A stretch of 64,000 bases of DNA. Source: Candidatus Micrarchaeota archaeon (GTDB lineage Archaea; B1Sed10-29; B47-G15). Location: NCBI GenBank assembly GCA_003660975.1, contig QMVG01000003.1:1-64000 (forward strand). Reading direction: 5' to 3'. The notes below the pieces were generated by a model. It was not told the origin of the DNA. It saw only the letters and a program-made list of their open reading frames with translations, and did no database searches. A program made the position numbers and the translations under genes. This document shows, piece by piece, positions 14,169-64,000 of the stretch. Each line of letters starts with the position of its first letter. Positions within the stretch are counted from its first letter, which is position 1.

Positions 14169-14169
14169 T

Positions 14170-15255: not shown

Positions 15256-15258
15256 AAT

Positions 15259-17020: not shown

Positions 17021-17033
17021 GGCTTTCAACCTT

Positions 17034-20529: not shown

Positions 20530-20548
20530 GCGTAAATATTTATTATCA
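20530..20548 (+). promoter_or_regulatory. Putative BRE/TATA promoter of tRNA-Ile
   Basis: AT-rich TAAATATTTATTA ~30 nt upstream of the tRNA 5' end. Confidence 0.4.
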
Positions 20549-20573
20549 TTTGCTGTTATATATTCTCTGTCTT

Positions 20574-20683
20574 GGGCCCGTAGCTCAGCCAGGTCAGAGC
20601 GACGGTCTTATATGGCACGTTCTGACTCAGTCGGTTCTGTCTGAGAGAACCGTAGGTCGCTGGTTCGAATCCGGCCGGGCCCA
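20574..20683 (+). tRNA. tRNA-Ile(UAU) with a 35-nt intron at 37/38 (20613-20647)
   Basis: Acceptor GGGCCCG/CGGGCCC-A; D stem GCTC/GAGC; anticodon stem ACGGT/ACCGT; spliced loop CU-UAU-AA; T arm GCTGG-TTCGAAT-CCGGC; complete bulge-helix-bulge (CUUA pairs with UGAG, GGCA with UGUC). Confidence 0.93.
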
Positions 20684-20701
20684 TTAAACCCCGTGTTGCG
20701 T

Positions 20702-23287: not shown

Positions 23288-23309
23288 ATAAGCACCGTCA
23301 GAAAAAGGT

Positions 23310-24038
23310 TTATGTGCCCTTTATTTTCGCTATTTCCTCTTCCAGCTCTTTCCTTAGCTTATCACCAATAAACTCTCCTTTGAAGTAGTCTATTCTGGCA
23401 ACCATACTTATCTTACTGGCAATTTTTCTGGCAATTTTTCCCCTGAGCTTTTTAGGTGCAGTTCTCAGTTCAGGAAAGGCAAATATATATCCATGCTTGG
23501 GCGATTTTGTTTTTTTCCTTATATGAGCAAAAAGGGCCTTTTCAGCTCCAAGAACCTGTATTGTTGAAGAAGGATACTCAGCTAATTTTTTCAGAGAACC
23601 AGCAGCGCTTATTAATCTAGCACCTAACATTGCGCCTGCCACTGCTGTTATATTGGGGGCCTCTTCTTCCATGACTTTTTCGAGGTATTGCTCCAGTACC
23701 CTCCTTTCGTCTCTTAGCTCTTTTACTATACTTGCAAAGCGCTTAATCCTGTTGAGATCCTCTTCTGTAAGCTTAGCCCCAAGAGATGTAGTGGGTCTGT
23801 CTTTTTCCAAGACGGTTTCTATATATGCATCTAAATCCTTTGCCTTCTGAGACAATTCTGGGTAATATATAGCATACCAGTGTCTTAGTTTTTCAAAGAG
23901 AAGGTTGCTGCTCTTATCAAGCTCGTCTATAGCCTTTACCACATAAACAATCAGCTTGTCTCTCTTTATTAATTCTTTTTTTATCTTTTCTCTAACAGCC
24001 TGCAATGCTTTTTTTCTTTTTTCTTCCAAGTTGTTCAT
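23310..24038 (-). CDS. nop5: Box C/D RNP protein Nop5 (Nop56/58), short form
   Basis: WYAIYYPEL, APN, PSSTIQVLGAEKALF, PKHG and RGKIAR motifs. Confidence 0.95.
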   Translation of the reverse strand: MNNLEEKRKKALQAVREKIKKELIKRDKLIVYVVKAIDELDKSSNLLFEKLRHWYAIYYPELSQKAKDLDAYIETVLEKDRPTTSLGAKLTEEDLNRIKRFASIVKELRDERRVLEQYLEKVMEEEAPNITAVAGAMLGARLISAAGSLKKLAEYPSSTIQVLGAEKALFAHIRKKTKSPKHGYIFAFPELRTAPKKLRGKIARKIASKISMVARIDYFKGEFIGDKLRKELEEEIAKIKGT

Positions 24039-24128
24039 GATTATGTTTTATGCATACTCTAATTAAAAAGGATACCATAAGTTTTTTAATTTCATTTCTC
24101 TTAAATTCAATGTCTCAAATTCTGCAAG

Positions 24129-26963: not shown

Positions 26964-26996
26964 TAAATAAGAGAAAAAGAAGAAAGTTGTTTTTTC

Positions 26997-27935
26997 TTAT
27001 CCTGCTACGCCTGTTATAGTGAGCGTTCCGCTGTATGAACCGGTTGCTGTTCCAGTTGGCACTCTTACCTTCCATGCTATTGTTTTCGTAGGTCCTGTGT
27101 AGAAATTGCTGTCAGTGTCTGCTCTGTCTCTTAAGTTGAAGTCAGCCCAAGACCAAGCACTGCTTTCTAGCTGTCTTGGGCTTGAATCTGGGTCTGCAGA
27201 TTTGCTGCCTACTTTGGTGGGACCTCCGTAAACGCTTTTGTTGAATGTTATGTTCGTGCTGTCTATTGTGCCTGAGCCGGTAAGGTCTGTTCCAGAAATC
27301 TGGACATCTACTTGCCTATTTCCAACATTTATTATCTTAGTGAAGTTGGCAACGCTTGAGTTCTGCCCAGCTGCTATAGAGCCAAAGTCAAGGTCATTTC
27401 CTGGGTTGTTGCCTCCTCCAGGATATGTGCCGTTTATCTCTATGGTGACCAATGAAGGACTTGTTGCTGACTGGGTTGGACTATCATCGTGAGCTCCTGA
27501 GCTGTCACTTGTATAAGGATAACAATACCACGTTCCATAATCCGCATAGTAATCTACAAGGAATCGGCATCTTACATTAGCTGTGTTTGAACCTCCCTGT
27601 GTTTTTGTGCACGCAGGGGATGGAGTGTAATGGGTATCCTCATCAGCACCAGCAGTTCTTCCAGATAAGCTGAAGTTGGCTGAAGCAGTTGATATGTCGC
27701 TATAACCATTTGCATCGTAAACATCAAATGTACATACAACGAGATGGTTGTATTCGTGAGCAGAAAGTGATGAGAAGTTGCTTATTTGCACATTTGAAAT
27801 GGATGGAGCCACATTACCAACATTTAGGCTCATAGATGCAGTGTCAGCATAGTATGTGTTCACAAAAGCCAGGAACATTACAAATAAACTTAGTATAATG
27901 ACCTGTAGCACACCTATAAACGCCCCCGATCTCAT
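26997..27935 (-). CDS. Secreted beta-sandwich surface protein, WxL-like/pilin-like small subunit
   Basis: Signal peptide and no C-terminal anchor; LDFGSI..., IINVGN and WKVRVPTGTATGSYSGTLTITG C-terminus; paralogous to the C-terminus of 29241-33047. Confidence 0.65.
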   Translation of the reverse strand: MRSGAFIGVLQVIILSLFVMFLAFVNTYYADTASMSLNVGNVAPSISNVQISNFSSLSAHEYNHLVVCTFDVYDANGYSDISTASANFSLSGRTAGADEDTHYTPSPACTKTQGGSNTANVRCRFLVDYYADYGTWYCYPYTSDSSGAHDDSPTQSATSPSLVTIEINGTYPGGGNNPGNDLDFGSIAAGQNSSVANFTKIINVGNRQVDVQISGTDLTGSGTIDSTNITFNKSVYGGPTKVGSKSADPDSSPRQLESSAWSWADFNLRDRADTDSNFYTGPTKTIAWKVRVPTGTATGSYSGTLTITGVAG

Positions 27936-27947
27936 TAATCTACCCCC

Positions 27948-29198
27948 TCATTTCCTCAGTTTAGACAATATTATTATCAGTCCTATGATTATCACTACAA
28001 TAAAGCCCATCATATATAAATTACTTTCTATTTCCTTTCTTTTTATCTTACTACCTGGGAGTAGTATTTCTTTGGTTAGCCACCCTGTGTCTTTTACATT
28101 TTCATTTACATAGGAATCTGAAGCCGAATAGCTTATCTTTGCTTTTATTACATATGGACCATCATATTCAGGAGTGTAGTAAATGGTGAAATTCTTTGTG
28201 TAACCTACATCCACTTCTATATATTCTGTTTCCCCATGATAAACCAGTTTATTTCCAATATCTTTCTCATATATGTCTGTGCTCATTTTGGCTTTTAGCG
28301 CCTTCTTTCCCGTATTTCTAAAAGAAGCAGTGATTTTGATTGGATATCCTGCTTTCGAGTAATCAACATCAAATTTATCGACCTGGCCAAGCAGCGTCCA
28401 GAAGCCAGGACTCAAAACCTCTACTACAACACTTACGTTATACACAGGTTCATTTGCTTCAGTCAAGTCTTTTCTCTCCTTAAATACCTCTATATCTAAA
28501 CTGTAATTGTCTGGCTTTATGTCGGTCCCAAGATTGACCTTTTTTATGCCTTCTGCTATCTCGTTAGGTTCAAGCTCACCAACATCTATGTTATAAGAGC
28601 GGAACACTCTGGATGAGGGAATACCCGTAAGTTTGCTTATCTTTCTTAAGTTAAGAACTATCACAGGATTCAACTTGACATTTCCACTATTGTATATCTT
28701 ATAGTTTACAGCCATAGGCAAGCCGTATTCTGTGCTTCTGGCACCTACTGCATAGACTTTTATAGACTTTGACTCATTGCCAACTACTGTTATATTCATC
28801 TTTACACTTGCTCCCACAAAAATTTTCATTCCAAGACCTTCATACTTTTTCGTTTCACTTGTGGCAATAATCAGGGCAGTAACGAGACCGTCATACGAAT
28901 GAGAAGGAGTGCTTTTTGGCGGCTGTATCCAGATTTTCACGATTTTCCTGCTGTATGAAGGTATGTCAAAAAGCGTTTCATTTGCAGTACAAAAATCCCT
29001 TATGTCCCCAGTTATGCTAACATTCACTGTGACTGTGAAATTATTGTTGTTGAGCACAGTGATCTCTCTGAAGGTTCTCCCACCTTTGAGAGCGTTATCA
29101 ATCGCGATTTCTCCAGGAGAAACCCCTATTGTGATGGCTTTTCCCGTGCTTACAACAAACAATAACATCAGTACCAAGATTGTAATATTTTTATTCAT
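27948..29198 (-). CDS. Secreted multi-Ig protein with C-terminal TM, WxL-interacting (DUF916-like)/PapD-chaperone-like
   Basis: Signal peptide; IGVSPGEI...ITVLN start; YNSGNV and FRNTGK Ig-type motifs; C-terminal TM + KLRK; AGGAGG-like SD upstream. Confidence 0.6.
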   Translation of the reverse strand: MNKNITILVLMLLFVVSTGKAITIGVSPGEIAIDNALKGGRTFREITVLNNNNFTVTVNVSITGDIRDFCTANETLFDIPSYSRKIVKIWIQPPKSTPSHSYDGLVTALIIATSETKKYEGLGMKIFVGASVKMNITVVGNESKSIKVYAVGARSTEYGLPMAVNYKIYNSGNVKLNPVIVLNLRKISKLTGIPSSRVFRSYNIDVGELEPNEIAEGIKKVNLGTDIKPDNYSLDIEVFKERKDLTEANEPVYNVSVVVEVLSPGFWTLLGQVDKFDVDYSKAGYPIKITASFRNTGKKALKAKMSTDIYEKDIGNKLVYHGETEYIEVDVGYTKNFTIYYTPEYDGPYVIKAKISYSASDSYVNENVKDTGWLTKEILLPGSKIKRKEIESNLYMMGFIVVIIIGLIIILSKLRK

Positions 29199-29240
29199 AC
29201 ACTCCCTCCTTTAAATTTTCTGCAGCGATGTTTTTAATCA

Positions 29241-32200
29241 TTACCCAGCCAACCCCTTTATTTCAAGCGTGCCAGCGTATCTTCTTGGGCTTTGTCCATA
29301 TGGCACGACCATTTTGAAAGCAATCGTGGCATTTGCTTCAAAGAATTTGTTCATAGTACTGGCATTTCTGAAGTATAGGTTCAAAGAAGACCATGTGTAC
29401 TCTGCTCTCGTCAACTGCCTGGGTGAATTACTTGGGTCAGCAGTTGTGCTGCCTTTTTTAGTCACTCCCCCATAATAACTTTTGTTGTATGTGATATTTT
29501 GTACACCTATAATGAACGTGCCTCCAGTCAGGTTCTTCAAGTGTGTGCCGTTTATTTTTACATCAATTTTGGTGTTTCCTATATTGATTATGTGAATATA
29601 TTCAGGACTGCTGGTGTTACTGCCAGCAGCTGTTGTTGGGAATGACAGAGCGCTCTCGTTTATCTGCACAGCAGTTATGGATGGAATTGTTACAGTGTCA
29701 CCTTCTGTATTGTTTATTTTATTATACTGGTTAGCTATGGAGACATTGCACTTCCACGTGCCTGCCTTTGCATAGTATTGGATTCTAAACAAGCAGGCAA
29801 AGTCATAAGTGCCATCACCATTGCTTATATTCCATGTGCATGAGTCATTGGAGTAATGAAGGTTGTCATCATCTGCTATCTTTGAGCTCTTGTAGGAAAT
29901 TGTGAAGTTTGCTTTTGCTTTTTTCAAAGAATATCCTTGAGGGTCAACAGTGAAGTTGCAGGTAATCCTGTGATTGTATTCGTGGGCAGTTATGTCAATG
30001 TCTCCATCATCCGATTGTCCCCAGTCAACTACTTTTACATTGCTGACTAAGGGCGCAGGTGTTGGAGGGTTTCTGACAGTTATCGTGTCTGTAACAGAGA
30101 GCAGTTGTGATGTGCCATTGCTGCAGCTAACATTGTAAGCATATGTGCCTGGTTGGTTGAATTCCTTGAAGAAAGTATAGTTGCCGTAGAAAGGACCTCC
30201 AGCACAAAAGGGTTCTTTGTTAACAGTGTCCATCTGTGCAGAGCCGTTAAACCACATAGGATACCAGTCAACAAACTGCTTTAAAACACCCTGAGAAGGA
30301 CCTCCAGTGGCAGTGTCATTGAAGGATATGTTGCACACAAAGCCATCGTATCTGAACACATTCACTAAGCCATGAGTAGGACCAAGAGGCATCCCCATAT
30401 CATCCATTAGTTGTTCCCAGCCAACACTCACTATCTCAGTGACCTTTGATTTCTCAGCAGAGCGGTTGTCTATGTTATCAGAATATATTTGTTCCACAAA
30501 GCTCTGCACCTCAACTACTGGGTCAGTAGGATCGAAAGGCCACATATACCATAAATACTCCTGCTCTTTTGTTGGAGTGCTTGCCCTGAAAGGACCTCCT
30601 GTTCCAGAGCTTCCCAGCTTGCTTATGTTGAATGTTTTCACAGAGGACTGATACCATGGTCCCCATTGCTGTGCATGTGCTCCTTCGTCATAGCCGCCAA
30701 CAGATATCTCCCTGTGGAACAGTGGTGAGTGCCATGACAGTTCGTCATAGGAGTGGTCAAATTGCGGAGAGTACTTTGCATTCATCTCGCTTACGTAAAC
30801 TGATTTTGCCATTGCCTCAAAACCATTTGGATCAGAGCTTGACCAGGATGTTGAGTTTTCAAGCACAGGGTTTCCAGAGATCGGGAAGAAATTATACACA
30901 ACTATAAACGCATCTTGGTAGCCTATCTGGCCAACAGCGACCACCTGGCCGTTATATCCTGGTGTTGGAGATGTGAAGTTCTCATAAAAGTCAATGTCGT
31001 AAAGCTCTGTAGGTCCTGTGCACCCAGAGACTCCGTAAAAGCTCACATTCAAATCCCTGTGGAGAGCAGAGGGTCCATTGTTGGAAATAAAAGCAAATCT
31101 TGTAATGTATCCATTATACGCAGACGGTTGATTTTCATGGAAGCCACCAACAAAAAAGTGACTATTGTTGTCTGTGTCAATAGCTCTTGCGTGCGTTTCA
31201 TTCCATCTAATGCCTATGCTCTTAGTATTATAGACAAAGGTCACATTTGAAACCAAATTCAATATGCTACCACTGCTGCTTATGTTGTATAGCAAGACGA
31301 AGCCCTTCTGAGAACATGTTGGGTCATCTGTGCTTAGGTCACAGCCACAGTCACCTGTTAAAGCTATTGAGGGCAGTGCTGTTGAGGATATGCGCGTTAC
31401 CTTGACATCCCATGGATGCGCAAAGTTCGTGACGCCTGATCCCCCATAACTCCAGTTTGCCTTATACTCCACTGTCAATGTTCCGCTGCCCAGCTTATTG
31501 GAGCCAGTTGTGTAATTAAATACTCTCACGAAAGCCTTGCTTCTTCCTGCAGTGCTGTAGTTCCCTACTACAACTATTTCCATCCTTCCGTCGCCGTCTA
31601 TGTCTCCTGCCCACACCATTTGCGCAGCTGTGCTGTTACTGCCATATCTCCATCTGGCATAGCTTTCCTTTTGAAGGTAATCTCCAGGAGGAGAGTTCGT
31701 TGGCGTGAAGTTCCATATGCTCAGATATGCCTCATTGTTGCTCGTATTCTCACCTACCACCATTATCTCTGTTACTGTGTCATTGTCAAGGTCAGTTGCA
31801 TAAACACCATAGAATTTCATGTCCTGCCTGCTATCATTGTCAACCATGCTCAATGAGAGCTTTGGTTTTATTGAATCACCCGCGCACATAAATACGTTAT
31901 CATGCTTATGATACGATGCCTGTATTTTCACGTAAAAAGGAGCAGCAGCAGTGCTGGCAGGAACTGTTCCCGTGTCATTGATATCAGAAACAACAAGCCC
32001 TGCTGTGTCTGTTGCCCCTCCGCCTGCCCACGCTGAAAAGGTAGCAGTGGAGAACCAGATATGGCTCCTGTTTTGGCCGAAGCTTAGGGAATCTGTTGAT
32101 ATCTCCTGCCAATCTCCATTGCATTTGAAGTTTTCACTGTCAAAGTCAGGACATCTAAAAAGTTGACTAACATAACTGCTTTTCCTCATTGTTATGTTAG

Positions 32201-33047
32201 CATAGCCAAAATTATTCAGGTTTTCGACAAGTATAACTGGCGTGACAATCCTTAGACCATTCACTCTTTCGTTATAATCTCCAATAATAACTGATGCTTG
32301 CTCTCCTTTTCTTATGTTTTTTATCATGATGTTTACGTCTTTGTCATCCAACATAGCGTCAAAAGTATCAGGACTGCTGTTTGTGGTTATAACAGTTCCA
32401 ATATCTCTATTATATTTGTCCTTAAAAGCAATGTTATAAGCAAAAGGCCCCTCGCGTTTTATTATAAGCCAACTTTCATTTTCCCTCTCCTTAACAATAA
32501 AGCTGGTCTCTGCAATTGCTTTTCTCGTGTAGAAAAAGACCTGATAAAAACCTGGCTCATCTGTGGAGTATGCAAGGGAGAAGTCCCTAATTACGAACTC
32601 CTCAGTACTCTTGTCTGGCTTCACTATTTGAATAAGACCCTCTCTTTCGTTTGACTTTAATGTTATCTGTTCTCCGAGCTCATACACCTCTTTGTCAGCA
32701 GAGATGCAAAGCTTTTGCTCTGTTTCAGTGCCTGTATTGTTTTCATATCCTTCACTTGTATTGAAATCATTGCTTGCATTATTTTGGACAAGTTCTTGGC
32801 TCGAAGATACATTAGCATCCAAGGTATTGTTTACAGTCTGGTTAAAAGAAAGGGCAGGGAGGAACAGCATGGCAAGCAGAAGCAGAGAGAGGAATATGCC
32901 TGCTTTTCCTCCCTTCTTTGATGCTGAGACAGGGCCAGCGGATTGGATGACAGAAAGTGAAGGCCCTATCTCCTTTCTGAGCATAAGGGAAAAGGTATGA
33001 AAATCGAAAATACTCTCAACTAAGCCTGTGAAAATTGAAACTTTCAT
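29241..33047 (-). CDS. Large secreted adhesin-like protein: FG-GAP-like beta-propeller region plus C-terminal copy of the small-subunit domain
   Basis: Hydrophobic signal segment; DLDNDTVTEIMVVG and GDIDGDGRMEIVVVG repeats; last ~275 aa paralogous to 26997-27935; start codon uncertain. Confidence 0.7.
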   Translation of the reverse strand: MKVSIFTGLVESIFDFHTFSLMLRKEIGPSLSVIQSAGPVSASKKGGKAGIFLSLLLLAMLFLPALSFNQTVNNTLDANVSSSQELVQNNASNDFNTSEGYENNTGTETEQKLCISADKEVYELGEQITLKSNEREGLIQIVKPDKSTEEFVIRDFSLAYSTDEPGFYQVFFYTRKAIAETSFIVKERENESWLIIKREGPFAYNIAFKDKYNRDIGTVITTNSSPDTFDAMLDDKDVNIMIKNIRKGEQASVIIGDYNERVNGLRIVTPVILVENLNNFGYANITMRKSSYVSQLFRCPDFDSENFKCNGDWQEISTDSLSFGQNRSHIWFSTATFSAWAGGGATDTAGLVVSDINDTGTVPASTAAAPFYVKIQASYHKHDNVFMCAGDSIKPKLSLSMVDNDSRQDMKFYGVYATDLDNDTVTEIMVVGENTSNNEAYLSIWNFTPTNSPPGDYLQKESYARWRYGSNSTAAQMVWAGDIDGDGRMEIVVVGNYSTAGRSKAFVRVFNYTTGSNKLGSGTLTVEYKANWSYGGSGVTNFAHPWDVKVTRISSTALPSIALTGDCGCDLSTDDPTCSQKGFVLLYNISSSGSILNLVSNVTFVYNTKSIGIRWNETHARAIDTDNNSHFFVGGFHENQPSAYNGYITRFAFISNNGPSALHRDLNVSFYGVSGCTGPTELYDIDFYENFTSPTPGYNGQVVAVGQIGYQDAFIVVYNFFPISGNPVLENSTSWSSSDPNGFEAMAKSVYVSEMNAKYSPQFDHSYDELSWHSPLFHREISVGGYDEGAHAQQWGPWYQSSVKTFNISKLGSSGTGGPFRASTPTKEQEYLWYMWPFDPTDPVVEVQSFVEQIYSDNIDNRSAEKSKVTEIVSVGWEQLMDDMGMPLGPTHGLVNVFRYDGFVCNISFNDTATGGPSQGVLKQFVDWYPMWFNGSAQMDTVNKEPFCAGGPFYGNYTFFKEFNQPGTYAYNVSCSNGTSQLLSVTDTITVRNPPTPAPLVSNVKVVDWGQSDDGDIDITAHEYNHRITCNFTVDPQGYSLKKAKANFTISYKSSKIADDDNLHYSNDSCTWNISNGDGTYDFACLFRIQYYAKAGTWKCNVSIANQYNKINNTEGDTVTIPSITAVQINESALSFPTTAAGSNTSSPEYIHIINIGNTKIDVKINGTHLKNLTGGTFIIGVQNITYNKSYYGGVTKKGSTTADPSNSPRQLTRAEYTWSSLNLYFRNASTMNKFFEANATIAFKMVVPYGQSPRRYAGTLEIKGLAG

Positions 33048-36659: not shown

Positions 36660-36736
36660 GGTGAAATTTAGAGATAGAAGAATATTTAAAACACAGCGTT
36701 GTAATAATATCAATGAATTTCGTAGGCAATTCTGAC

Positions 36737-38992
36737 ATGAAATTGAAGGTTTTAGAAGATGATACGCACATCTTTGTAGGCAGAAAGAAAAGCATACATG
36801 AAAAATATGGTATTGAAGGCAGCTTGCTGTTTGGCAAATCCTTAGAGAAAGAGAAGTTTGGAAAGCTGGTTCATTTGGATGCAATATCTCCTCACGTTAT
36901 ATTTATTTGTGGTGCGAGAGGTTCAGGCAAATCATATGATTTAGGAGTTATTGCAGAAGAGATAATTACAAAGAACCCGAACCTTGCAGCTGTTGTGATA
37001 GACCCTGTGGGTATCTTCTGGTCTATGAAGCACCCTAACAAAGAGGAAAGAGAGGTCAAAGACCTCTTGGAATGGGGACTTGAGCCAAAAGGTCTGGAAA
37101 GCACAAAGGTTTTTATCCCCTATGGTTTGAAGGAAAGCATCCCGAAGGACACATACGATGCTTTGTTTTCTATAAAACCATCTGAACTGACTGTTGACGA
37201 CTGGTGTCTGACCTTTGGCCTTGAAAGGTTCTCGCCAACCAGTCTGCTCCTTGAGAAGGCAATTGAGAAAGCCAAGGCAAAGAAAAGAAATTTTTCCATA
37301 GATGACTTGATAAGAGTTATTGAGAAGGACAAGGAGCTTATCAGCAGAGAGAAGGGATATAGTATAAGCACAAGAAGGGCTTTGCTATCAAGGCTGGAGG
37401 CTGCAAAATCCTGGGGCATTCTCTCAGAAGAAGGCACGAGCTTGTCCGAGATATGTATGGAGGGTATTGTTAGCGTTATAGATATCTCATTTTTGGAAGA
37501 GAATGTATCTTCTTTGGTCATAGGCATGCTCGCCAGGAAAATATTAAATGCAAGGAAAAAGGTTACGAGGCAGGCTTCTATGAAGAAATACGCTATGTCT
37601 GATATAGATGAGCTTTTGGATGTTGAGATTCCGCCAACATGGCTGTTCATAGATGAAGCCCATACACTCATTCCTTCAGGAGGCCTGAAGACAGCAGCCA
37701 CTGACTCTTTAATAGAATATGTTAAGCAGGGAAGAAGACCTGGCTGCTCGCTGGTCTTTGCAACGCAGCAGCCCTCAGCGATAGATACAAAAGTGCTCTC
37801 CCAACTGGATATTCTTATAACTCACAAGCTTGTTTTTGAAGAAGACATAAAAGCAGTTATGAAAAGAGTGCCAACAGTGGTCCCAGATGAGTACAGGAAG
37901 GCATCATTCATAAGGAGCTTGCCAATAGGCGTTGCTCTGCTTGCTGACAGGAGCGAGCAGAGTTCGAGGGCGTTTACAGTTAAGGTGAGACCTAGGTTTT
38001 CTCAGCATGAAGGCAGGGAAACTACAAGCATAGAGTTGGACGAGAACTTTGATGAGGAAACAATAAGGAAGATGATAGTTGAGCTAATATACAAAAAACT
38101 ACAATCAGAAGGTCGCATGCCTCTGCGGAAGCTAGAAACACTGGCCGACACTTTGAAGAGGAGATATAAAGTTAAGATAGAAACAGACGAGATAATACAT
38201 TATTTGGTGGAGAATAAAAACTGCGAGGTTAGAGAGGGAGCGCTGTGGCTAGGAGGTAAAATGCCTTCTTACGAAGAAGAGGCTTTAGAGGAAAAAAGCT
38301 CAACCGAGCTCAGCCAGAAAGCGCTACCTGTTTTGATAAGTGAAGAAAAAGCAAAGCAAATTGCAGAAAAGCGCAAAAAAGAGAAATTGCTTGGATTGTT
38401 TGGAAAAGAGGAAAAGGTCAAGAGCATTGAACTTGTTTACTCCCCTGTCTATATGCTTTCGTATTCAAGAAAATCAGAGCGCGGTTCTATTCCATCGCGC
38501 TGCTTTGTTAGTCCTGATTATGAACTTCTCTTCTTTGGCAAGAAAGGCCTTCAAAAGACAAAGTCAATAAACATGCTTTTGGACCTTTCTGATAAGAAAT
38601 TTAGGGTCTTTAAGGAACTTAGGGCTGCTTGGTTGACCAGAAAGCAGGTTCAAGAAAAGACACTACTCACTGCGCAGGCTGCTGCCAAATACCTCAGAGA
38701 ACTTGTTGGTGCTGGCCTTGTGGAGAGAAAGGGAGAAAAGTACAGGGCAAAGAATCTGGACGTGCCCAATGATATACTGTCTGCAAGTTTCAGCCTTGAA
38801 AATGTGGACCTGGTCAAGCCAAGAAACGCCAAAGTAGAGGAAATCAAATGCAATGAGAAGAGAATCCAGTCTATACCTAAACTTTTTGGCCCTGCTATAA
38901 TTGATAGTGTTGATATCGTACTTCTTCCAAAGTGGCGGGTTACATACGAATCTGCAGGGAAATCCAGGATAGAGGAGTTCTTTGCTTTATAA
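36737..38992 (+). CDS. HerA/FtsK-like (DUF87) ATPase with C-terminal winged-helix region
   Basis: Walker A GARGSGKS, Walker B FIDEAH, QGR and ATQQP motifs; C-terminal wHTH-like KYLRELVGAGLVER. Confidence 0.85.
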   Translation: MKLKVLEDDTHIFVGRKKSIHEKYGIEGSLLFGKSLEKEKFGKLVHLDAISPHVIFICGARGSGKSYDLGVIAEEIITKNPNLAAVVIDPVGIFWSMKHPNKEEREVKDLLEWGLEPKGLESTKVFIPYGLKESIPKDTYDALFSIKPSELTVDDWCLTFGLERFSPTSLLLEKAIEKAKAKKRNFSIDDLIRVIEKDKELISREKGYSISTRRALLSRLEAAKSWGILSEEGTSLSEICMEGIVSVIDISFLEENVSSLVIGMLARKILNARKKVTRQASMKKYAMSDIDELLDVEIPPTWLFIDEAHTLIPSGGLKTAATDSLIEYVKQGRRPGCSLVFATQQPSAIDTKVLSQLDILITHKLVFEEDIKAVMKRVPTVVPDEYRKASFIRSLPIGVALLADRSEQSSRAFTVKVRPRFSQHEGRETTSIELDENFDEETIRKMIVELIYKKLQSEGRMPLRKLETLADTLKRRYKVKIETDEIIHYLVENKNCEVREGALWLGGKMPSYEEEALEEKSSTELSQKALPVLISEEKAKQIAEKRKKEKLLGLFGKEEKVKSIELVYSPVYMLSYSRKSERGSIPSRCFVSPDYELLFFGKKGLQKTKSINMLLDLSDKKFRVFKELRAAWLTRKQVQEKTLLTAQAAAKYLRELVGAGLVERKGEKYRAKNLDVPNDILSASFSLENVDLVKPRNAKVEEIKCNEKRIQSIPKLFGPAIIDSVDIVLLPKWRVTYESAGKSRIEEFFAL

Positions 38993-39053: not shown

Positions 39054-42000
39054 ATGAAACGCTATGCTCCATTTTTGATTTTCCTATTCTTCTTTATCTC
39101 AATTGCTCACTCATATATTATTGTAGAGGCAAATTCCTCCAATGCGAGTTATAATGGCATTATAGGTCTTAATATTACAGTTTATAACAGCAGTGGTTCG
39201 GCTGTGGCCAACGTCAGTTTAAACCTCAGTGTTATGGGCAGCCCTTCTTGGGCTAGCTGCTCTGTTGACTCAAATACATCTGAAAACGGAAAAGCCAATG
39301 CTTCCTGCTCTTTTAACAACGCAATTAACGGCACATATAATTTCAGTGTTCATTCAGCAAGCTATGGAGACAATAATAGCGTCCAATTCAGAATTCTTCA
39401 GCACGATGAGAAACCTATTTTTAGTGTAAATAGTTCCATAGCTTATTCGGAGAAAAACAGTGTCACTAAATTTGAACTATATGTTATAAATAAAAATAAC
39501 TACCAAACTGAGTTTAATTTTTCCCATAGCAATATATCTGATTTTAATTGTTCTTTCAATAACAGTTTAATGTCCCTACCCCCTATATCTACTCTTTATA
39601 CCAATATCTTCTCCTGCTCTGTAAACAATAGCGTGGCCGCAGGCAGTTATAACATCACTATATGGGTGAATGCAAGCAATAACAAAAGCATCTCGTCTGA
39701 ATTAAATCTTACATTGCACGTGAGACCAAGGCATAACTTCACACTGTCAAATCTAAGTAATACAAGAGGCAGCATTGAAGCTGGTAAGAGTTTCAGCTTT
39801 ACCTTCCTGCTAAATAACACAGGAGAAACTGCAGTTAACTATTCTATAAACCCAACTGCAAATAATTCGTGGGCGTGTGGTGTGAATGCCTCTAACGTTG
39901 TAGACCTCCAAGTAAACAAAACTGTGAATATAAGCGTTAGTTTCAGGACAAGTGTCACAGCACCATACAACGAAACTGGTGTTTGCACTGTAACTGTCAC
40001 AGATAGTTATGGGCTGGAAAAAAACATAAGCTTCAATTTAAGCGCTGATAAGCATTACAATTTATCTCTTCACCTACCAAGGTCACCAGTAGACAACTTC
40101 GATGACGGAAATCTGAGTTTTCTGCTTAATGTTTCAAACGACGGCAACAGTGGTTTGAGCTTCAATATTTCAGTAGATAGCAGCTCAGCAAATTGGAATA
40201 TCTCGTGGAACATAAGCTCTACCAATGATTCCACAAAACAACACATAAAGAACCTGTCATATTTTATACAAAACTTCTCGCTCACAACAATTAACATCTC
40301 CGTGGTGAAGCCACAGGACGCCAAATGCGGGGACAGCACAACGCTTTGGGTGGAGCTTAGCTCTGCCCATACAGATAAAATCGTAAGGAGCATACGCGTT
40401 GAGTATCCATGTCTAAAAGCTGTCCCCGCTATCACATATAATCACAGCTCAAAGTTGCTTTCCATTATAATTCCAAATGTTACAAAAGGAGGTGAAACAC
40501 TCAACAGGACCGAGGCAGTTATAAACTTAACAATAAGTGATTCTGATGGCAACAGCATCTTTAGTGTAAGTAATATGACAGTTGACAAGACATACAACAA
40601 AAGTCTAAGCAATACGGCTGCAAGCAGTTTTAGGTTGCATCTGCACCTAAAGAAGAACGGCAGTTCGGACATTGTAAATGACATATACGCCAACTTTGCA
40701 ATATATGACAGCATTGATTTATACGTAAGGCCAACATATAGTCCAGTGGAACGAGGGGATACTATAAGCTTTACAGTCGAGAGCAAATTGGAAGATAAAT
40801 GGCTAAATCCGTCAATCAGTTGCACACGTGAGGGGTCTAAAAACTGTGGAATATGGCTTGAAAACTGCCGCTGGCTTGAGAATTCAGGCACATCAAGGAC
40901 ATACAGATGTGATATAAAAGACAATGCTCTGCTTGGCAGCTTTGATGTAAGCTTTTCTGTGGAAGCGTCTTCGTGTGCTGATAGCACAAACATAACTTGC
41001 ACATATGATCCAAAGCTCTCAGCATCAGATGACTGCACAGTCAATATTAGGGAATCTGAAGACAATAATCAGAACAGTCAAGACCAACAAGAGAATCAGT
41101 CAGAATCCTCTCAGGAGGAGCAGGCCTCAGCTCCAAAGCTGAGTATAAAAAATTTGAAGCAAGGAGAGGTCTTCAAGAACACCAAAGTGCTTTCAGGAGG
41201 TTTTGTGATATTGGTGGAAAACGATGGAGGAGCTGGGCAGCTATCTGCATCTATTAATGAGCTTGGAGCCGTGAAGCACTTCTATCTTGATATTGACTAC
41301 AACCAAAGCATTGAAGCGAACTCCACAGCGAGATTGGTTATGAAGATAAAACCAATTGAGAATACAAAGCCAGGGGTTTACAATATAATGCTCAAAGTCA
41401 ATGACTTGATGCGAACATTTAAAGTTCCAGTGATGCCACCAGAGGACAATAAAAATTGGCATAGGTTCTTTGAAGTAGCAAAAAATGGCAGCACTATCAT
41501 TACATTGCGCGTGAAAAACACAAGGAATGGGCCAAACAATTTTACTGTTACTGAGAGAATACCAAAAGAGGCAGCTAGGACAGCAGACGGGGTATTTGTA
41601 ATAAGCCCAAGTGATTATGTAGTAATAGAAAAGGATCCAGTTATAAAGTGGATAGTGAAAGATGTAGCTCCTGGCAGGGAATTTGACATAGTATATATGA
41701 TTGGTAGGAATGTGACGAACATTAATTTCCCGAAGCCAGAAATAGGAGAGTCATATATATACAGCGTGGGAAGGCAGGCCCATATCGTAGCAGCTGGAAT
41801 AAGCCGCAACCCACAGGCCCTCTTGGTGCTTTTTGGTGTTTTAATATCTGCTTCAATATGGTTCTTTATGTATAAGAAGGGCCTGCTCGAGCCAAAAGCA
41901 TATTATATACCGCGCGCTCCGAAAAAGCAGAAGAGAAGAGCCGGAGCAGAAGATTTTGTTATGCAATATTCTCTAGATGCCAACAAGGAAAGGCATTCTG

Positions 42001-42242
42001 TATACGGTCCAGTATTGGCTGAATACTCTCTTTTCCCTGAGAGGCAAAGCCCACCAAAAGAGAAAGTAGCCGCAGAAAAAAAGCCTGAAAAGAAGAAGGT
42101 TAAGGAAAAACAGGGGCATTCTCGCAGACCTGCTCTGCTAAAGCTTCCTAAGATAAAAGCCCTTAATGCCTTTCCTATCATAAAAAAGAAAAGAGATAAG
42201 AAGAAAAGCAAGAAAAAAACGAAAAAGAAATCAAGGCGTTAG
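39054..42242 (+). CDS. Large membrane-anchored surface glycoprotein with tandem Ig-like domains
   Basis: Signal peptide; very dense NxS/T sequons; NNTG and NDGN Ig-type motifs; TM near aa 925-945; Lys-rich tail. Confidence 0.75.
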   Translation: MKRYAPFLIFLFFFISIAHSYIIVEANSSNASYNGIIGLNITVYNSSGSAVANVSLNLSVMGSPSWASCSVDSNTSENGKANASCSFNNAINGTYNFSVHSASYGDNNSVQFRILQHDEKPIFSVNSSIAYSEKNSVTKFELYVINKNNYQTEFNFSHSNISDFNCSFNNSLMSLPPISTLYTNIFSCSVNNSVAAGSYNITIWVNASNNKSISSELNLTLHVRPRHNFTLSNLSNTRGSIEAGKSFSFTFLLNNTGETAVNYSINPTANNSWACGVNASNVVDLQVNKTVNISVSFRTSVTAPYNETGVCTVTVTDSYGLEKNISFNLSADKHYNLSLHLPRSPVDNFDDGNLSFLLNVSNDGNSGLSFNISVDSSSANWNISWNISSTNDSTKQHIKNLSYFIQNFSLTTINISVVKPQDAKCGDSTTLWVELSSAHTDKIVRSIRVEYPCLKAVPAITYNHSSKLLSIIIPNVTKGGETLNRTEAVINLTISDSDGNSIFSVSNMTVDKTYNKSLSNTAASSFRLHLHLKKNGSSDIVNDIYANFAIYDSIDLYVRPTYSPVERGDTISFTVESKLEDKWLNPSISCTREGSKNCGIWLENCRWLENSGTSRTYRCDIKDNALLGSFDVSFSVEASSCADSTNITCTYDPKLSASDDCTVNIRESEDNNQNSQDQQENQSESSQEEQASAPKLSIKNLKQGEVFKNTKVLSGGFVILVENDGGAGQLSASINELGAVKHFYLDIDYNQSIEANSTARLVMKIKPIENTKPGVYNIMLKVNDLMRTFKVPVMPPEDNKNWHRFFEVAKNGSTIITLRVKNTRNGPNNFTVTERIPKEAARTADGVFVISPSDYVVIEKDPVIKWIVKDVAPGREFDIVYMIGRNVTNINFPKPEIGESYIYSVGRQAHIVAAGISRNPQALLVLFGVLISASIWFFMYKKGLLEPKAYYIPRAPKKQKRRAGAEDFVMQYSLDANKERHSVYGPVLAEYSLFPERQSPPKEKVAAEKKPEKKKVKEKQGHSRRPALLKLPKIKALNAFPIIKKKRDKKKSKKKTKKKSRR

Positions 42243-60218: not shown

Positions 60219-60641
60219 ATGGATTGGAATCAATTTGATAAAGGAGTCTTTTTGGTAAACTTATTGGGCATCATATATGACCCCAAAACTAAAAAGATTT
60301 TAATTGGCAAGAGGGAAAATGACCCCTACATCAAAGAGCTATCTTGGTGTTTTCCAGGAGGCAGGCCTGGCTATGTTGATGACCTGGAATTTTACCTCAA
60401 AGAGCAGATTAAAATCAAAACAGGACTAGAGGTTGAGCCTAAAAAAATTGTCTTTGCTAAAACATATCCGGAAAAAAGAGAATTCCTCTCAATATACTAC
60501 TATTGCGAAGTTTTGGGTGGTGAGGAGAAGGCCGGTGATAAATTTGTTGAAATAAAATGGGTAAGACCTACAGAGGTTGTTAATTATTTTACTACCTCCT
60601 TACACCAAAAGGTTCTAGATTTCTTAAGGACACTAGAGTGA
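60219..60641 (+). CDS. NUDIX-fold protein with degenerate Nudix box
   Basis: ILIGKR; WCFPGG...KTGL; the canonical REUXEE is replaced by KEQIKIK. Confidence 0.8.
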   Translation: MDWNQFDKGVFLVNLLGIIYDPKTKKILIGKRENDPYIKELSWCFPGGRPGYVDDLEFYLKEQIKIKTGLEVEPKKIVFAKTYPEKREFLSIYYYCEVLGGEEKAGDKFVEIKWVRPTEVVNYFTTSLHQKVLDFLRTLE

Positions 60642-60726
60642 CGGAGGATTGCGTAAATTAACAGATATTGCTGATTTTTAGCAAAGTTTTTAAACATTTA
60701 CCTGCTTTAATAAGAAGGGGATTTTT

Positions 60727-61494
60727 ATGAAAGGTGATAGAGTTTCATCAGGAATATTCGGCTTGGATGATCTAGTGGCGGGAGGCTTCCCCAAAAATAG
60801 TATAATTCTTTTGGCAGGAGGTCCAGGCACAGGTAAAACCACATTTTCTCTACAATACCTATATAAAGGCATAGTTGACTATGGAGAAAATGCTATCTAT
60901 GTCAGTTCAGAAGAAGATTTTAATGAGATAAACACATCTATGTCTGCTTTTGGGATGGACTTTGAGAAAGTATCCAATGAAAAAAAATTTTCAATGATAA
61001 CATTTGAAGGGAGCACTGAGATTAAAGAACTCATCTCACGGATAAAAAACTCAGCAAAGCAAATAAAGGCCAACAGGTTAGTTATTGACTCTTTTTCATC
61101 TTTGGAGCTATTTGCTTCAACATATAAATCAGTCATAAATGAGTTGCCTCTATCAGCTTTGAGGTTGCCTTCATCTGTTATGGTGCCAACAGAGGCAATA
61201 GTTAGAAAGATGTTGTACAAATTGATATCCAGTTTGAAACAATTAGGATTAACAACAATCTTAACATCTGAGTTTGATGGCAGCACAAAATATTCGAGAT
61301 ATGGGGTTGCAGAATTTTTAGTCGATGGTTTGATAGTCTTACATTACTCATCTATCGGACAAAAAAAGTTTGGCAACATTGAGATTAAGAAGCTTAGGAA
61401 GACCAAACACACGCACGGTATTTTTGATTATGACCTCACCGAAAAAGGCTTTGAGATATTTGTAGAGCATGGACCTTCAATCATAATGAAGTGA
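60727..61494 (+). CDS. KaiC-like/RAD55 RecA-superfamily ATPase (single domain)
   Basis: SSGIFGLD, GGPGTGKT, SEE, RLVIDS, EFLVDGLI and KLRKTKH motifs. Confidence 0.92.
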   Translation: MKGDRVSSGIFGLDDLVAGGFPKNSIILLAGGPGTGKTTFSLQYLYKGIVDYGENAIYVSSEEDFNEINTSMSAFGMDFEKVSNEKKFSMITFEGSTEIKELISRIKNSAKQIKANRLVIDSFSSLELFASTYKSVINELPLSALRLPSSVMVPTEAIVRKMLYKLISSLKQLGLTTILTSEFDGSTKYSRYGVAEFLVDGLIVLHYSSIGQKKFGNIEIKKLRKTKHTHGIFDYDLTEKGFEIFVEHGPSIIMK

Positions 61495-61498
61495 TAAA

Positions 61499-62143
61499 AT
61501 GCCATTTATGTCCGGCGCATACGGTCTTTTTGGTAAATGGCTAATTTCAGGTCAACTTAAGATCAGCGAAGGCGATATTTCTTTGCTTGGGCAAAGAGTG
61601 GCAATGCTTCCAACTTCTTTTTTTGTTGAGATGGAAAAGACAGTACAGAAATCAAATAGTCCAACTCTCCGAGACGATGTTTATCTTTGGGCATGGAAAA
61701 TTGCTTATTTGTACATTAAAAAATTTGTGGAGGAATATGGTCTGAAGACCTTTGAAGAAAGGTATAAATGGGGAATGGATATTGCTTCTTTAGCTGGCTT
61801 TGGGGATTATAAAACTATTGATTATCATGATAAAGAATATAGTTATTTTTACATTATAAACAATCCAATCGCGGAGGCTTTTTACCCTTCTAAAAAAGCA
61901 GTAGACACTTTCCTTAGGGGCATAAATGCAGGTGGTGGTACTGCCTGTCATATGCAGATAGTCAATTGTTTGGAGACCGACTGCCAAGCAATAAATGGCC
62001 AAAAATGTGTTTTTATAACAGGCACAGAAAGAGCACATGAAAAGTTCGGAGTTTCTGATTTGTACGCTGAACAGTTGGATCTTGATTATGTACTTCCGCA
62101 ACAAAAAGAATTCCTAAGAAAGGTAGGATTACCGAAGGTGTAG
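61499..62143 (+). CDS. V4R (4-vinyl reductase) domain protein
   Basis: GQRVAMLP, AGFG and RGINAG...ETDCQAINGQKCVF V4R signature. Confidence 0.8.
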   Translation: MPFMSGAYGLFGKWLISGQLKISEGDISLLGQRVAMLPTSFFVEMEKTVQKSNSPTLRDDVYLWAWKIAYLYIKKFVEEYGLKTFEERYKWGMDIASLAGFGDYKTIDYHDKEYSYFYIINNPIAEAFYPSKKAVDTFLRGINAGGGTACHMQIVNCLETDCQAINGQKCVFITGTERAHEKFGVSDLYAEQLDLDYVLPQQKEFLRKVGLPKV

Positions 62144-62146
62144 TAA

Positions 62147-62980
62147 ATGAACAAAGCAGATGATAAAGACCTTATACAAAAATCGTTTAAAAAGGTAGAA
62201 GAACTTCAAATAAAAAACCATGACAGCCAAGTGCCTTTGTTTCTAGAGTATTTTAGAAATAGGCGAGTTGATTCCGGTACACTCTCTTTTCTTGAAACTG
62301 TTCTAATGGACCTCGAAAGGATCTTTTGGACCATTGATGATACGCTGGATCTACAGTATGATAATAGTAAAGAATTATATTTATACAATGAAATAGTCAA
62401 ATTTGTTAGCTTTGTTTTGTTAATGGATAAAATTTTAACCAAGCAATTTGCCGATAAGAGAGATTTGTTATCTTCTTTGATAGGAAAAAAGATACTTGCA
62501 GAGCGGATTCTCGATGCCATAAAAATTACATTAAAACCGTTAGTTAATATTCCATATAACGAGGCACTCTTATCAAGGAGGTTTAAAAAATTGAATTCTG
62601 ACCATGAACTGATAAAATTCATAAAAGAAAACCAATTAAACAAAGCGCAAAATTTAAAGGTTTATGCAGCAGTGTCAGAAGCCATATGTAAGAAGAATGT
62701 AAAGTTAGACTTGTTTCTTTATGCTAGAGCCATCCAACTTATACGCAATGACATTGAAGATGTTGGGGAAGATAGAAGGCACGATAACAACAACATTGTT
62801 CTTTTATTAAGGCGAAGGTTTAGAAGTAGAAACAAAATAAACAGCCTTCTAATAACTACTGCTAAAGAGATGTATAGATATATCGAAGGCAATTGCGATG
62901 AAAACACCTCTTTTTTGAAAGAATTCGCCAAGGCTGAGATTCAAAAAATAAGAAACTTACTTAATACTCAGCACAGATAG
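62147..62980 (+). CDS. Putative class I isoprenoid synthase/terpene synthase-fold protein
   Basis: All-alpha composition with IDDTLD (DDxxD) and QLIRNDIEDVGED...N (second metal-binding motif). Confidence 0.6.
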   Translation: MNKADDKDLIQKSFKKVEELQIKNHDSQVPLFLEYFRNRRVDSGTLSFLETVLMDLERIFWTIDDTLDLQYDNSKELYLYNEIVKFVSFVLLMDKILTKQFADKRDLLSSLIGKKILAERILDAIKITLKPLVNIPYNEALLSRRFKKLNSDHELIKFIKENQLNKAQNLKVYAAVSEAICKKNVKLDLFLYARAIQLIRNDIEDVGEDRRHDNNNIVLLLRRRFRSRNKINSLLITTAKEMYRYIEGNCDENTSFLKEFAKAEIQKIRNLLNTQHR

Positions 62981-63361
62981 TGGGTTCCATCCAAAGAGCA
63001 TGGCAATTATGATAAAAGCGCTTAGCCAGAGTAATGCAAGGCCTACCCTTTCATTTACTATTACCCAGTATTGCCTTGTTTTTGACATGTCATCTATGAG
63101 ATGGCCTAAATAGCCAACGCTAAAAGCAGTGAATATTAAGTGTTTGGGTTTTACTAGGAATAGCAAAAAAGGGATTAAAAATGAGTGGAGCAATGGGTTT
63201 CTGTGCCCAAGTTTCAGGAACTGGTCAATGTCAGGAGTCAATGCCCCTATTAATGAGAAGAGCATAAAAGGTGGAATCTTTTCTAAGGGTATGCTGAAAA
63301 GGATTATGAAAAGAATGGAGAGCAGTACTGATGTCACTATATGCAGGAAATACCTGGACAT
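62957..63361 (-). CDS. Membrane-bound metal-dependent hydrolase (YdjM-like)
   Basis: H...PDID...HRNPLLHS...GHLIDD motifs; start at MSRYFLH. Confidence 0.8.
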   Translation of the reverse strand: MSRYFLHIVTSVLLSILFIILFSIPLEKIPPFMLFSLIGALTPDIDQFLKLGHRNPLLHSFLIPFLLFLVKPKHLIFTAFSVGYLGHLIDDMSKTRQYWVIVNERVGLALLWLSAFIIIAMLFGWNPLSVLSIK

Positions 63362-63482
63362 CGGAGTCTTCCTGTCTTCTTTCTCGCCCACAGTTAATTT
63401 ACTGCAGTAATGTTTAAAAATGCTTTCTACAAAAAATGAAAGATTTTTATAATGTGGCTTTCTAATAAAAGAGAGGAGGCAT

Positions 63483-64000
63483 ATGGGAAGAAAAGCACAG
63501 TATCTTGTGAGACGGGAAAGAGAGCGAAGGAATATAGGAAATGAAGAAAAAAATTCCACCAGGATAGAAACTGAGATTCTTGTAAAAGGAGGCCCTGAAG
63601 CTCTTTTGAGATATAAGGGTTTGGATCCCAAAGAGATACCCAGAGAGGTTATGAGCTCATTAGAGGAAAGTAGGAAGGAAAGAAGCAGCAGAGGTCTGAG
63701 AACACTTGAGCTATTCATTCAAAGCCTTCCACCAAAAGAGAGGTCGAAGATATTACTAAGAGCGATTGAGGAGAGAAGAAAAAGGATGCCACCGCTTAAA
63801 GAAGGGGATAAAGAAAAAAAGATAAAAATAAGAAAAAAGACAGGAAAGAAATCCTTTATTGGAGGGGGGATCACACATAAAAGAGCTGAACTGGGGGAGC
63901 TTGAAACAGAGCTGAAATTTACCCATGCTTTGCTGGAAAATGTAGCAGAATATCAGGCAGGGGGCAAGCCATTGTCTGTTCTAGTGAGGACTCTAAATAG
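63483..64000 (+). CDS. Hypothetical charged protein, 3'-truncated by window edge
   Basis: GAGGAGG SD then ATG at 63483; frame appears open to the window end. Confidence 0.65.
   Translation, partial: MGRKAQYLVRRERERRNIGNEEKNSTRIETEILVKGGPEALLRYKGLDPKEIPREVMSSLEESRKERSSRGLRTLELFIQSLPPKERSKILLRAIEERRKRMPPLKEGDKEKKIKIRKKTGKKSFIGGGITHKRAELGELETELKFTHALLENVAEYQAGGKPLSVLVRTLN

Follow-up and report, generated by a model that had tools for sequence, protein, structure and literature searches.

A recurrent archaeal gene triad of a KaiC-like ATPase, a V4R protein and a class I isoprenoid-synthase-fold protein, possibly dedicated to isoprenoid-lipid metabolism

The described systems closest to the locus reported here are the phenol-sensing regulators of the XylR type, the KaiC-like ATPases of archaea and the prenyltransferase MoeN5. 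The locus consists of three adjoining genes, for a KaiC-like ATPase, a V4R protein and an all-helical third protein, at positions 60727 to 62980 of a 64,000-nucleotide stretch of DNA from Candidatus Micrarchaeota archaeon (contig QMVG01000003.1); this whole stretch is called the window and the three genes the triad. The window covers the initial 64 kb of a contig of 117 kb, and the genome (1.33 Mb, 130 contigs) is 89.7% complete. The collection used for comparison holds 31 species genomes of the same phylum, all of them small (0.3-1.3 Mb). KaiC-like ATPases were reportedly proposed as archaeal signal-transduction hubs by Makarova, Galperin and Koonin in mBio in 2017, and the triad likewise combines a single-domain KaiC homologue with a small-molecule-binding input domain. 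The logic of XylR, DmpR, MopR and PoxR appears to be alike, a hydrophobic-ligand sensor being coupled to a P-loop ATPase. These regulators, however, are AAA+ sigma-54 activators with a DNA-binding domain, whereas the triad has a KaiC/RecA-type ATPase and no DNA-binding domain. Sensor and ATPase are separate proteins in the triad and are fused in the protein P0040 and in four other archaeal proteins.

MoeN5, the moenomycin head-to-middle prenyltransferase (5b00, 5b02), was the closest structure to the model of the third protein (Z 16.5-17.8, root-mean-square deviation (rmsd) 3.2-3.6, about 232 residues), and the two proteins are alike in size, at about 260-277 amino acids (aa). As described in a review, MoeN5 resembles the trans-prenyl synthases and joins geranyl diphosphate to the prenyl chain of a phosphoglycolipid, not to isopentenyl diphosphate (IPP) (PMC7839719). 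This acceptor other than IPP fits the absence of IPP-site motifs in the third protein. The identity between the two in structural alignment is 9-10%, and MoeN5 was not reached by sequence or profile search at E values up to 10. The hosts also differ, as MoeN5 belongs to an antibiotic cluster of an actinomycete, whereas the third protein is archaeal and linked to KaiC and V4R.

The explanation preferred here is that the three genes form one operon in which a KaiC-V4R sensor/ATPase pair, dedicated to isoprenoid-lipid metabolism, is coupled to the third protein, the founding member of a new and rare prenyltransferase family with the class I fold and Mg2+ dependence. This joint explanation was given an even chance of being right. 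The parts of the unit are of known kinds (KaiC-like ATPase, V4R sensor, class I isoprenoid fold), and the family of the third protein is uncatalogued. The gene of the KaiC-like ATPase (60727..61494, 255 aa), that of the V4R protein, a stand-alone sensor domain (61499..62143, 214 aa), and that of the putative class I-fold enzyme (62147..62980, 277 aa) are co-oriented on the + strand with gaps of 4 and 3 nucleotides (nt). The program-made list of open reading frames (ORFs) gives coordinates identical to those on which the sequence-only reading, an earlier description made from the letters of the window, had based its three closely spaced genes. Inspection of the intergenic leader before the first gene (60642..60726, + strand, 85 nt, AT-rich) revealed a TTTTTAAA-like stretch and a GGGG purine run immediately before the ATG, and this leader is a candidate archaeal promoter and ribosome-binding region. 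No terminator-like sites were returned by the promoter/terminator scan, the promoter model of which is of the sigma-70 type and inapplicable to archaea.

The AlphaFold2 model of the third protein is all-helical with 13 helices (predicted local distance difference test (pLDDT) 93.9, predicted template-modelling score (pTM) 0.90). Comparison of this model with 48,161 chains by VIA-align indicated that the best 50 rows are all isoprenoid-synthase-fold proteins. MoeN5 stood at the top with Z scores of 17.7 and 17.4 (for 5b02, rmsd 3.2 with 232 residues aligned of a 264-residue chain), and the trans-isoprenyl diphosphate synthases of PF00348 (geranylgeranyl, farnesyl, hexaprenyl and octaprenyl diphosphate synthases) showed the same fold at Z 12-15.2 in this search and at Z 12-16 over 225-250 residues when the re-comparison described below is included. 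Lower scores were obtained for a UbiA homologue (10.9), squalene synthase (10.5) and terpene cyclases (10.0 or less, against 17.7 for MoeN5). A re-comparison over the 1000 best chains of Foldseek gave the same order, the 11 top entries all being MoeN5 with Z 16.5-17.8. In the Foldseek list itself roughly the top 50 rows are all isoprenoid synthases, with a best E value of 0.023, and the ESM Atlas model of the protein points to the same fold (template-modelling (TM) score 0.51-0.57). On these models the third protein is assigned the class I isoprenoid-synthase fold. The sequence-only reading had named an enzyme of terpene-synthase type and left its fold to be checked by structure comparison; the class I fold stands, as both lists indicate, while membership of a curated terpene-synthase or polyprenyl-synthase family was not found by sequence, and the protein is closer to the prenyltransferases than to the cyclases.

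Two acidic motifs are present in the third protein, both at helix ends in the secondary structure of the model. The first Asp-rich motif, DDTLD (D64, D65 and D68; residues 64-68; 62336..62350, + strand), lies at the C-terminal end of helix 43-67. The second, NDIEDVGED (residues 201-209; 62747..62773, + strand), has the family pattern xDxxDxxxD and ends QLIRNDIEDVGED, residues 197-209 of the protein (nt 62735-62773). Both motifs were thereby recovered exactly where the sequence-only reading had put its pair of Mg-binding sites, and both are kept in the family. In the first motif D64 is conserved in 16/17 sequences, D65 in 17/17 and D68 in 16/17; in the second D202 is conserved in 18/18, D205 in 13/18 with Glu in three more, and D209 in 17/18. 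Position 201 is variable over the 18 sequences (Glu 13, Lys 2, and Asn, Gly and Cys one each). When members at 13-18% identity are included in an alignment of 22 sequences, D202 remains invariant and D64, D65, D68 and D209 are each retained in at least 90%. The residues E139, R166 and R194 are also conserved down to 13% identity. The conservation of both Asp motifs is far above chance.

The motifs were compared with those of the known classes that share the fold. Chain-elongating synthases carry DDxxD as their second motif together with basic IPP-binding motifs (GGKRxR-like and RRG-like). The third protein has DDxxD at the position of the first Asp-rich motif, as in the PF00348 synthases (by hhalign, non-significant), and differs from them in having no Pfam match, in a second motif of the form xDxxDxxxD in place of DDxxD, and in that no GGKRxR-like or RRG-like basic motif was seen. 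In the family alignment, neither the region around residues 20-30 nor that following the first motif shows a conserved basic cluster. As the basic motifs for IPP binding known from chain-elongating synthases were unseen, we infer a prenyl acceptor other than IPP, and the model would thus be that of a Mg-dependent prenyltransferase with a non-IPP acceptor. In one locus of a related genome (L028) a true PF00348 enzyme stands in the place of the third protein beside KaiC and V4R. The class I terpene cyclases combine DDxxD with an NSE/DTE motif, and in the third protein a pair that may be comparable is about 137 residues apart. The cyclase motif (N/D)Dxx(S/T)xxxE and the family motif (E/K/N)DxxDxxxD have the same spacing, with Asp replacing both the Ser/Thr and the Glu. 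A C-terminal RY pair is a motif of terpene cyclases, and no conserved pair of this kind was found in the alignment of the third-protein family. Archaeal terpene synthases with a single alpha domain are reported in a preprint (10.1101/2024.01.29.577750) to lack Pfam domains, their DDXXD being located at residue 67 and their NSE-like motif at residue 221, and the third-protein family may be comparable with them.

The family of the third protein was delineated by sequence searches. The protein has no Pfam or NCBIfam family above cut-off, and neither it nor any of 19 family members matches PF00348. A candidate assignment as class I terpene cyclase by PF19086 was rejected: the match (0.0077; 16.4 against a cut-off of 23.7 bits) covers residues 21-53, off the motifs, occurs in 1/19 members, and was treated as chance because no family recurs among the 19. 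Relatives numbered 2 by word-indexed search and 23 by a full HMMER scan of 1.84 billion representatives. The family occurs in one of the 31 genomes of the phylum and in 9/401 archaeal relatives. A match in a further genome (G136, E 6e-4) was left out, being a 66-residue local match within a 675-aa protein. When hhalign was run against the polyprenyl synthases, DDTLD was placed on their first Asp-rich motif (FARM), which is non-significant (probability 2.7%, E 0.017). The sole PDB sequences that the family profile reached are pentalenene synthases at a non-significant E value of 2.3, with NDIEDVGED aligned on NDIASLEKE. The family also includes long-form paralogues of about 400 aa, which are extended N-terminally by about 120 aa and retain both motifs as DDYVD and DIKDIHTD. 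One of these is convergent with a complete triad (L015 1886-3061, - strand), and another stands directly after KaiC and beside a polyprenyl synthase at a locus without a V4R gene (L017 5537-6739, + strand).

The second gene has no Pfam family at E 0.1 or better and hence no direct match to PF02830. Weak V4R matches were found in 6/14 members of its family (best 0.0011, Pfam), and one of the 16 relatives found carries the source annotation 'predicted hydrocarbon binding protein'. Searched with the family profile, the host genome yields a paralogue (G000:C8 18900-19451) at 2.8e-14, and this paralogue passes the Pfam V4R model (2.3e-10; 40.8 bits, cut-off 31). V4R is also carried by every one of the 30 Atlas clusters nearest to the protein. 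Its AlphaFold2 model (pLDDT 86.8, pTM 0.82) gave 30 Foldseek matches at E 0.001 or better, led by MopR 5kbi (E 2e-8, TM 0.68), DmpR 6iy8 (4.3e-8) and PoxR 5frz (1.6e-7). The phenol-sensor domains overall scored E 2e-8 to 1e-6 with TM 0.64-0.70, followed by the archaeal V4R protein MJ1460 (2osd, 4.6e-5) and by Bet3/TRAPPC3 (1e-4 to 1e-3). The model matches the whole sensor domain of the XylR/DmpR/MopR/PoxR type (E 2e-8, TM up to 0.70), and an E...C-x7-C pattern is present in both. The second gene therefore encodes a V4R protein corresponding to a full XylR/DmpR/MopR-type sensor domain. A stand-alone V4R protein had been proposed for it from the letters of the window, and the paralogue, the Atlas neighbours and the structure match all bear this label out. 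A candidate metal site of the domain (61949..62008, + strand) is formed by H151, E159, C162 and C170 with the pattern E-x2-C-x7-C, and these four residues are invariant across 14 family members. In a report on DmpR the zinc ligands are Cys151, Glu172, Cys177 and Cys185 (PMC7264223), and the four residues of the second gene probably correspond to that zinc site.

The first gene matches the Pfam KaiC model PF06745 with 2.7e-57 and 194.2 bits against a cut-off of 26.6, as one domain over a protein of 255 aa, in accordance with its earlier description as a single-domain KaiC-like ATPase. Circadian KaiC has two tandem KaiC domains and about 500 aa. This identity was considered for the first gene and rejected, the protein being of 255 aa with a single domain and scoring 153 against a cut-off of 408 bits for NF006799 and 122 against 546 for TIGR02655. 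It falls under every NCBIfam equivalog cut-off, including those of circadian KaiC, ArlH and RadA. The Walker A P-loop GGPGTGKT (residues 31-38; 60817..60840, + strand) is well kept in an alignment of 11 triad-type KaiCs, where G31, G34 and K37 are invariant and G36 is conserved in at least 90%. The Walker B residue D121 is invariant in the same alignment, and the catalytic Glu E62 is conserved in at least 90%. Judged from these residues, the KaiC-like ATPase is predicted to be catalytically intact. In a tree of 33 KaiCs each V4R type is paired with its own KaiC clade, and the first gene with its L014 orthologue forms a separate clade (support 100/98).

The linkage of the three genes was examined in other genomes. 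A complete triad was found at 10/12 inspected loci of the third-protein family (the window, L014, L015 and L090-L096), which span at least five archaeal families and include both co-directional and convergent arrangements. The V4R protein of the triad loci is of the A2 type (E 1e-43 to 1e-107). The order KaiC-V4R-enzyme is kept in five loci (the window, L014, L015, L090 and L091/L092, the last two from one genus and counted once), and gene order or orientation is altered in L093-L096. The two loci short of a triad are L017, with KaiC and a long-form paralogue and without V4R, and L016, which is cut at its 5' end. The recurrence of the neighbourhood and its linkage to KaiC and V4R genes, which the sequence-only reading had made a point on which its proposal should be judged, were thus found in other genomes.

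The coupling of KaiC to V4R is also seen in single polypeptides. The protein P0040 (461 aa) is a collinear KaiC-V4R fusion, in which the whole KaiC is matched by residues 3-250 (30% identity, 3e-28) and the whole V4R protein by residues 253-455 (43%, 2e-55). Its Walker A is GTPGTYKS, and since Tyr replaces the expected Gly, its ATPase may be inactive. Four further KaiC-V4R fusions (L072-L075; 399-476 aa) come from one archaeal family with both Pfam domains over cut-off. KaiC and V4R, which are one polypeptide in other archaea, are regarded as a probable functional pair. As separate genes, KaiC is the immediate neighbour of V4R at 11/17 loci of the phylum and within one gene of it at 12/17, against 1/30 top-scoring V4R loci of other archaea. 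These neighbour counts and fusions are an independent verification of the KaiC-V4R pairing that the sequence-only reading had cited as established.

Other V4R contexts were observed in the course of this comparison. In a second V4R subfamily of about 260 aa, KaiC is always directly upstream (L060-L062, L064-L066, L069), and the KaiCs concerned group in a clade apart. Further KaiC copies and a short gene for a CheY-like receiver of about 120 aa (starting MKKILVVEDE...) occur at several of these loci and also at L068, which suggests larger KaiC signalling clusters. In a third context, which lacks a nearby KaiC, a short V4R gene stands beside a gene for a radical-SAM-like protein of about 335 aa with the N-terminus MREAMFYKK...C..C (L063 1694-3274; L067 2729-4454; L013 2543-4689). 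The locus L026 has the order V4R, KaiC and a 211-aa predicted membrane protein (7568-8203) with an IDDAFDE motif and no Pfam family, which may be another Asp-motif enzyme in the position of the prenyltransferase.

Isoprenoid genes recur in the surroundings of KaiC-V4R pairs. KaiC-V4R pairs paralogous to that of the triad, with a short V4R, adjoin UbiA (L009, L011, L027), a Pfam polyprenyl synthase (L028, 4.3e-22), genes of GGR-like flavoproteins (L009, L010, L069) and isopentenyl phosphate kinase (IPK; L012). Among the loci with a triad, L093 has a polyprenyl synthase gene directly beside it, and in L094 and L095 one lies 4-4.5 kb off. The host genome itself has a lipid-gene island on contig 8 (about 13000-30600, of which L011 covers 13500-25000). 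Within it are a geranylgeranylglyceryl phosphate (GGGP) synthase gene (13035-13727), two genes for KaiC-like proteins, V4R and UbiA as a gene pair, IPK, an IDI-like NUDIX gene and two polyprenyl synthases in tandem (28326-30567). The sole UbiA gene found in the host genome with the queries used directly neighbours the second V4R gene, and a CarS match is on contig 1. With two polyprenyl synthases, IPK, the IDI-like NUDIX protein, GGGP synthase, UbiA and CarS, the host is predicted to make allylic prenyl diphosphate substrates.

A NUDIX protein of 140 aa (Pfam 1.3e-6) is encoded 85 nt upstream of the KaiC gene of the triad (window 60219-60641, + strand). IPP isomerase and prenyl-diphosphate hydrolases belong to the NUDIX enzymes. 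L095 also has an IDI-like NUDIX gene near its triad, and the NUDIX link is unconserved at the other loci seen.

On the observed gene identities, folds, motif conservation, linkage and fusions, a mechanism may be proposed for the host. The three genes would act as one operon and one functional module for isoprenoid (membrane-lipid) chemistry. The third protein would bind an allylic prenyl diphosphate as its substrate through the two conserved acidic motifs and, as the catalytic step, move the prenyl group to an acceptor other than IPP. From this chemistry the V4R protein would take its ligand, a hydrophobic substrate or product. The KaiC-like ATPase and V4R would make contact and act together as a sensor-ATPase pair, in which ligand occupancy of V4R gates the ATPase or the phosphorylation state of KaiC. 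The direction of control would then run from the state of KaiC to the third enzyme or to the lipid pathway, which would be adjusted. A further-reaching form of this proposal is that KaiC-V4R is a lipid-sensing switch of small-genome archaea and that the third gene is the first archaeal head-to-middle prenyltransferase of the MoeN5 type, prenylating an ether-lipid or polyprenyl-carrier chain to give a branched or extended lipid monitored by V4R-KaiC; in this full form the proposal is doubtful.

Several results weigh against a dedicated lipid module with a new prenyltransferase. A common fold and common motifs are no proof of activity or substrate. Foldseek gave no match at E 0.001 or better for the third protein, no sequence method places the protein in any isoprenoid family, and no Pfam family recurs in the 19 members. 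By hhalign the probability against the alignments of polyprenyl synthase, UbiA and SQS/PSY is at most 2.7%, with unrelated controls at 0.0-1.9%, and PDB profile searches with the family gave nothing significant. None of the other 30 genomes of the phylum yielded a member of the family, which is therefore accessory and not core lipid machinery. The gene context is also mixed: hidden Markov model scans found no isoprenoid gene near 6/10 additional V4R loci of the phylum (including L063 and L067), so that KaiC-V4R pairs are not restricted to lipid genes, and within about 8 kb of the window's triad no gene for a polyprenyl synthase, UbiA or GGR is present. Since the related genomes are non-independent, the counts overstate the support.

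The same evidence was weighed for other explanations. The V4R protein could instead carry or chaperone a prenyl or lipid intermediate to the prenyltransferase (UbiA, polyprenyl synthase or reductase at the paralogous loci), with KaiC powering loading, release or membrane extraction. Such a substrate-handling machine accords with the varied families of prenyl-chain enzymes that V4R adjoins from locus to locus (UbiA, polyprenyl synthase, GGR-like, the new enzyme) and with the V4R fold being common to Bet3/TRAPPC3, including the palmitate-bound 6aq3; the KaiC-V4R fusions suit a machine as well as a switch. It is nonetheless rather unlikely, as many KaiC-V4R pairs of the phylum have no lipid enzyme nearby and the nearest V4R structures, MopR, DmpR and PoxR, are ligand sensors that regulate an ATPase (PMC7264223). 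The sequence-only reading had favoured a signalling cassette, with a diffusible prenyl-derived signal made by the enzyme, V4R as its receptor and KaiC as the transducer, as in quorum sensing. The triad is indeed tightly conserved, and the enzyme family is rare and patchy (9/401 genomes, 1/31 in the phylum), as for an accessory signalling trait; an enzyme-made messenger for V4R is also proposed for V4R-asparaginase systems in a preprint (10.64898/2026.10.19.760177). The loci of the triad, however, have no conserved export or uptake gene and no transcription-factor output, and the paralogous pairs lie in housekeeping lipid clusters, which points to metabolism and not to communication. For the KaiC-V4R pairs in the core lipid clusters of kin, homeostatic control or the handling of substrates is no worse an explanation than a diffusible signal, and the cassette was judged improbable, more so than substrate handling.

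Two further explanations change the role of the third protein or of the whole unit. The third protein may not be a prenyltransferase at all and may be a non-catalytic regulatory partner, comparable with the small subunits of heteromeric prenyl synthases, or a Mg-dependent enzyme acting on a non-isoprenoid diphosphate. The lack of sequence-level membership in any isoprenoid family agrees with this, and VIA-align also lists non-catalytic or regulatory members of the fold, namely the geranyl diphosphate synthase small subunit 3qkc (Z 10.7), the OsGRP complex 5xn6 (12.1) and the heptaprenyl synthase heterodimer 9kp1 (12.1). The two acidic motifs together are the mark of catalytic members and are usually lost in non-catalytic subunits. 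As both of them and two Arg residues are conserved to 13% identity here, and the best structural matches are catalytic enzymes, this explanation is very unlikely. Least probable of all, with hardly any chance of being right, is a role in virus defence or conflict, with a V4R sensor and a nucleoside triphosphatase (NTPase) answering a messenger made by the enzyme. The rare and patchy distribution and the fast divergence of the third gene would suit it, and V4R-NTPase conflict systems have already been proposed in that preprint (10.64898/2026.10.19.760177). With PADLOC, however, neither the V4R protein nor the enzyme gave any match, KaiC gave only a weak one of the P-loop kind (mad8, 6.6e-8), and no nuclease, TIR, HEPN or pore-forming effector is among the named neighbours, which are housekeeping or lipid genes. 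The explanation preferred over all of these remains the KaiC-V4R sensor/ATPase pair coupled to a new prenyltransferase family.

Elsewhere the window carries housekeeping genes together with a cluster for glycosylation. Directly after the triad, a membrane-protein ORF of 253 aa (62957-63718, - strand) is convergent with it and overlaps the 3' end of the putative prenyltransferase gene by 24 nt; its sole match is a weak one to YdjM (6e-4, under the cut-off). Two very large ORFs of the window, 29244-33047 (- strand, 1268 aa) and 39054-42239 (+ strand, 1062 aa), have no Pfam family at 1e-5, and the latter adjoins a gene of a HerA-like ATPase (36713-38989). The protein-glycosylation cluster (1-20355) contains many glycosyltransferases, sugar-nucleotide enzymes and a phosphosugar transferase of the GT4 family, together with an AglB/STT3 oligosaccharyltransferase (18019-20355, minus strand). 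A protein-glycosylation pathway requires a polyprenyl-phosphate carrier.

The regulation of isoprenoid membrane-lipid synthesis in archaea is to our knowledge largely unknown, as are the inputs and outputs of most archaeal KaiC-like ATPases. No description of the triad, or of a link of KaiC-V4R to lipid genes or prenyltransferases, was found in the literature searched, with supplements and the main KaiC paper lying outside that search. The third gene represents a new family, probably enzymatic, that was entirely missed by sequence-based annotation, and since its nearest structural relative performs an unusual head-to-middle prenyl chemistry, the enzyme may make an unfamiliar lipid or terpenoid. 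The capacity of small-genome archaea to build and remodel their own membranes is debated, and the host genome bears on this debate through its matches to GGGP synthase, UbiA, CarS, two polyprenyl synthases, IPK and an IDI-like NUDIX protein. The module offers a testable link between lipid synthesis and KaiC, as it combines a hydrophobic-ligand sensor domain, an ATPase that is fused to this domain elsewhere and recurrently adjoining prenyl-chain enzymes. The three-gene unit hints at an undescribed control of archaeal membrane-lipid chemistry.

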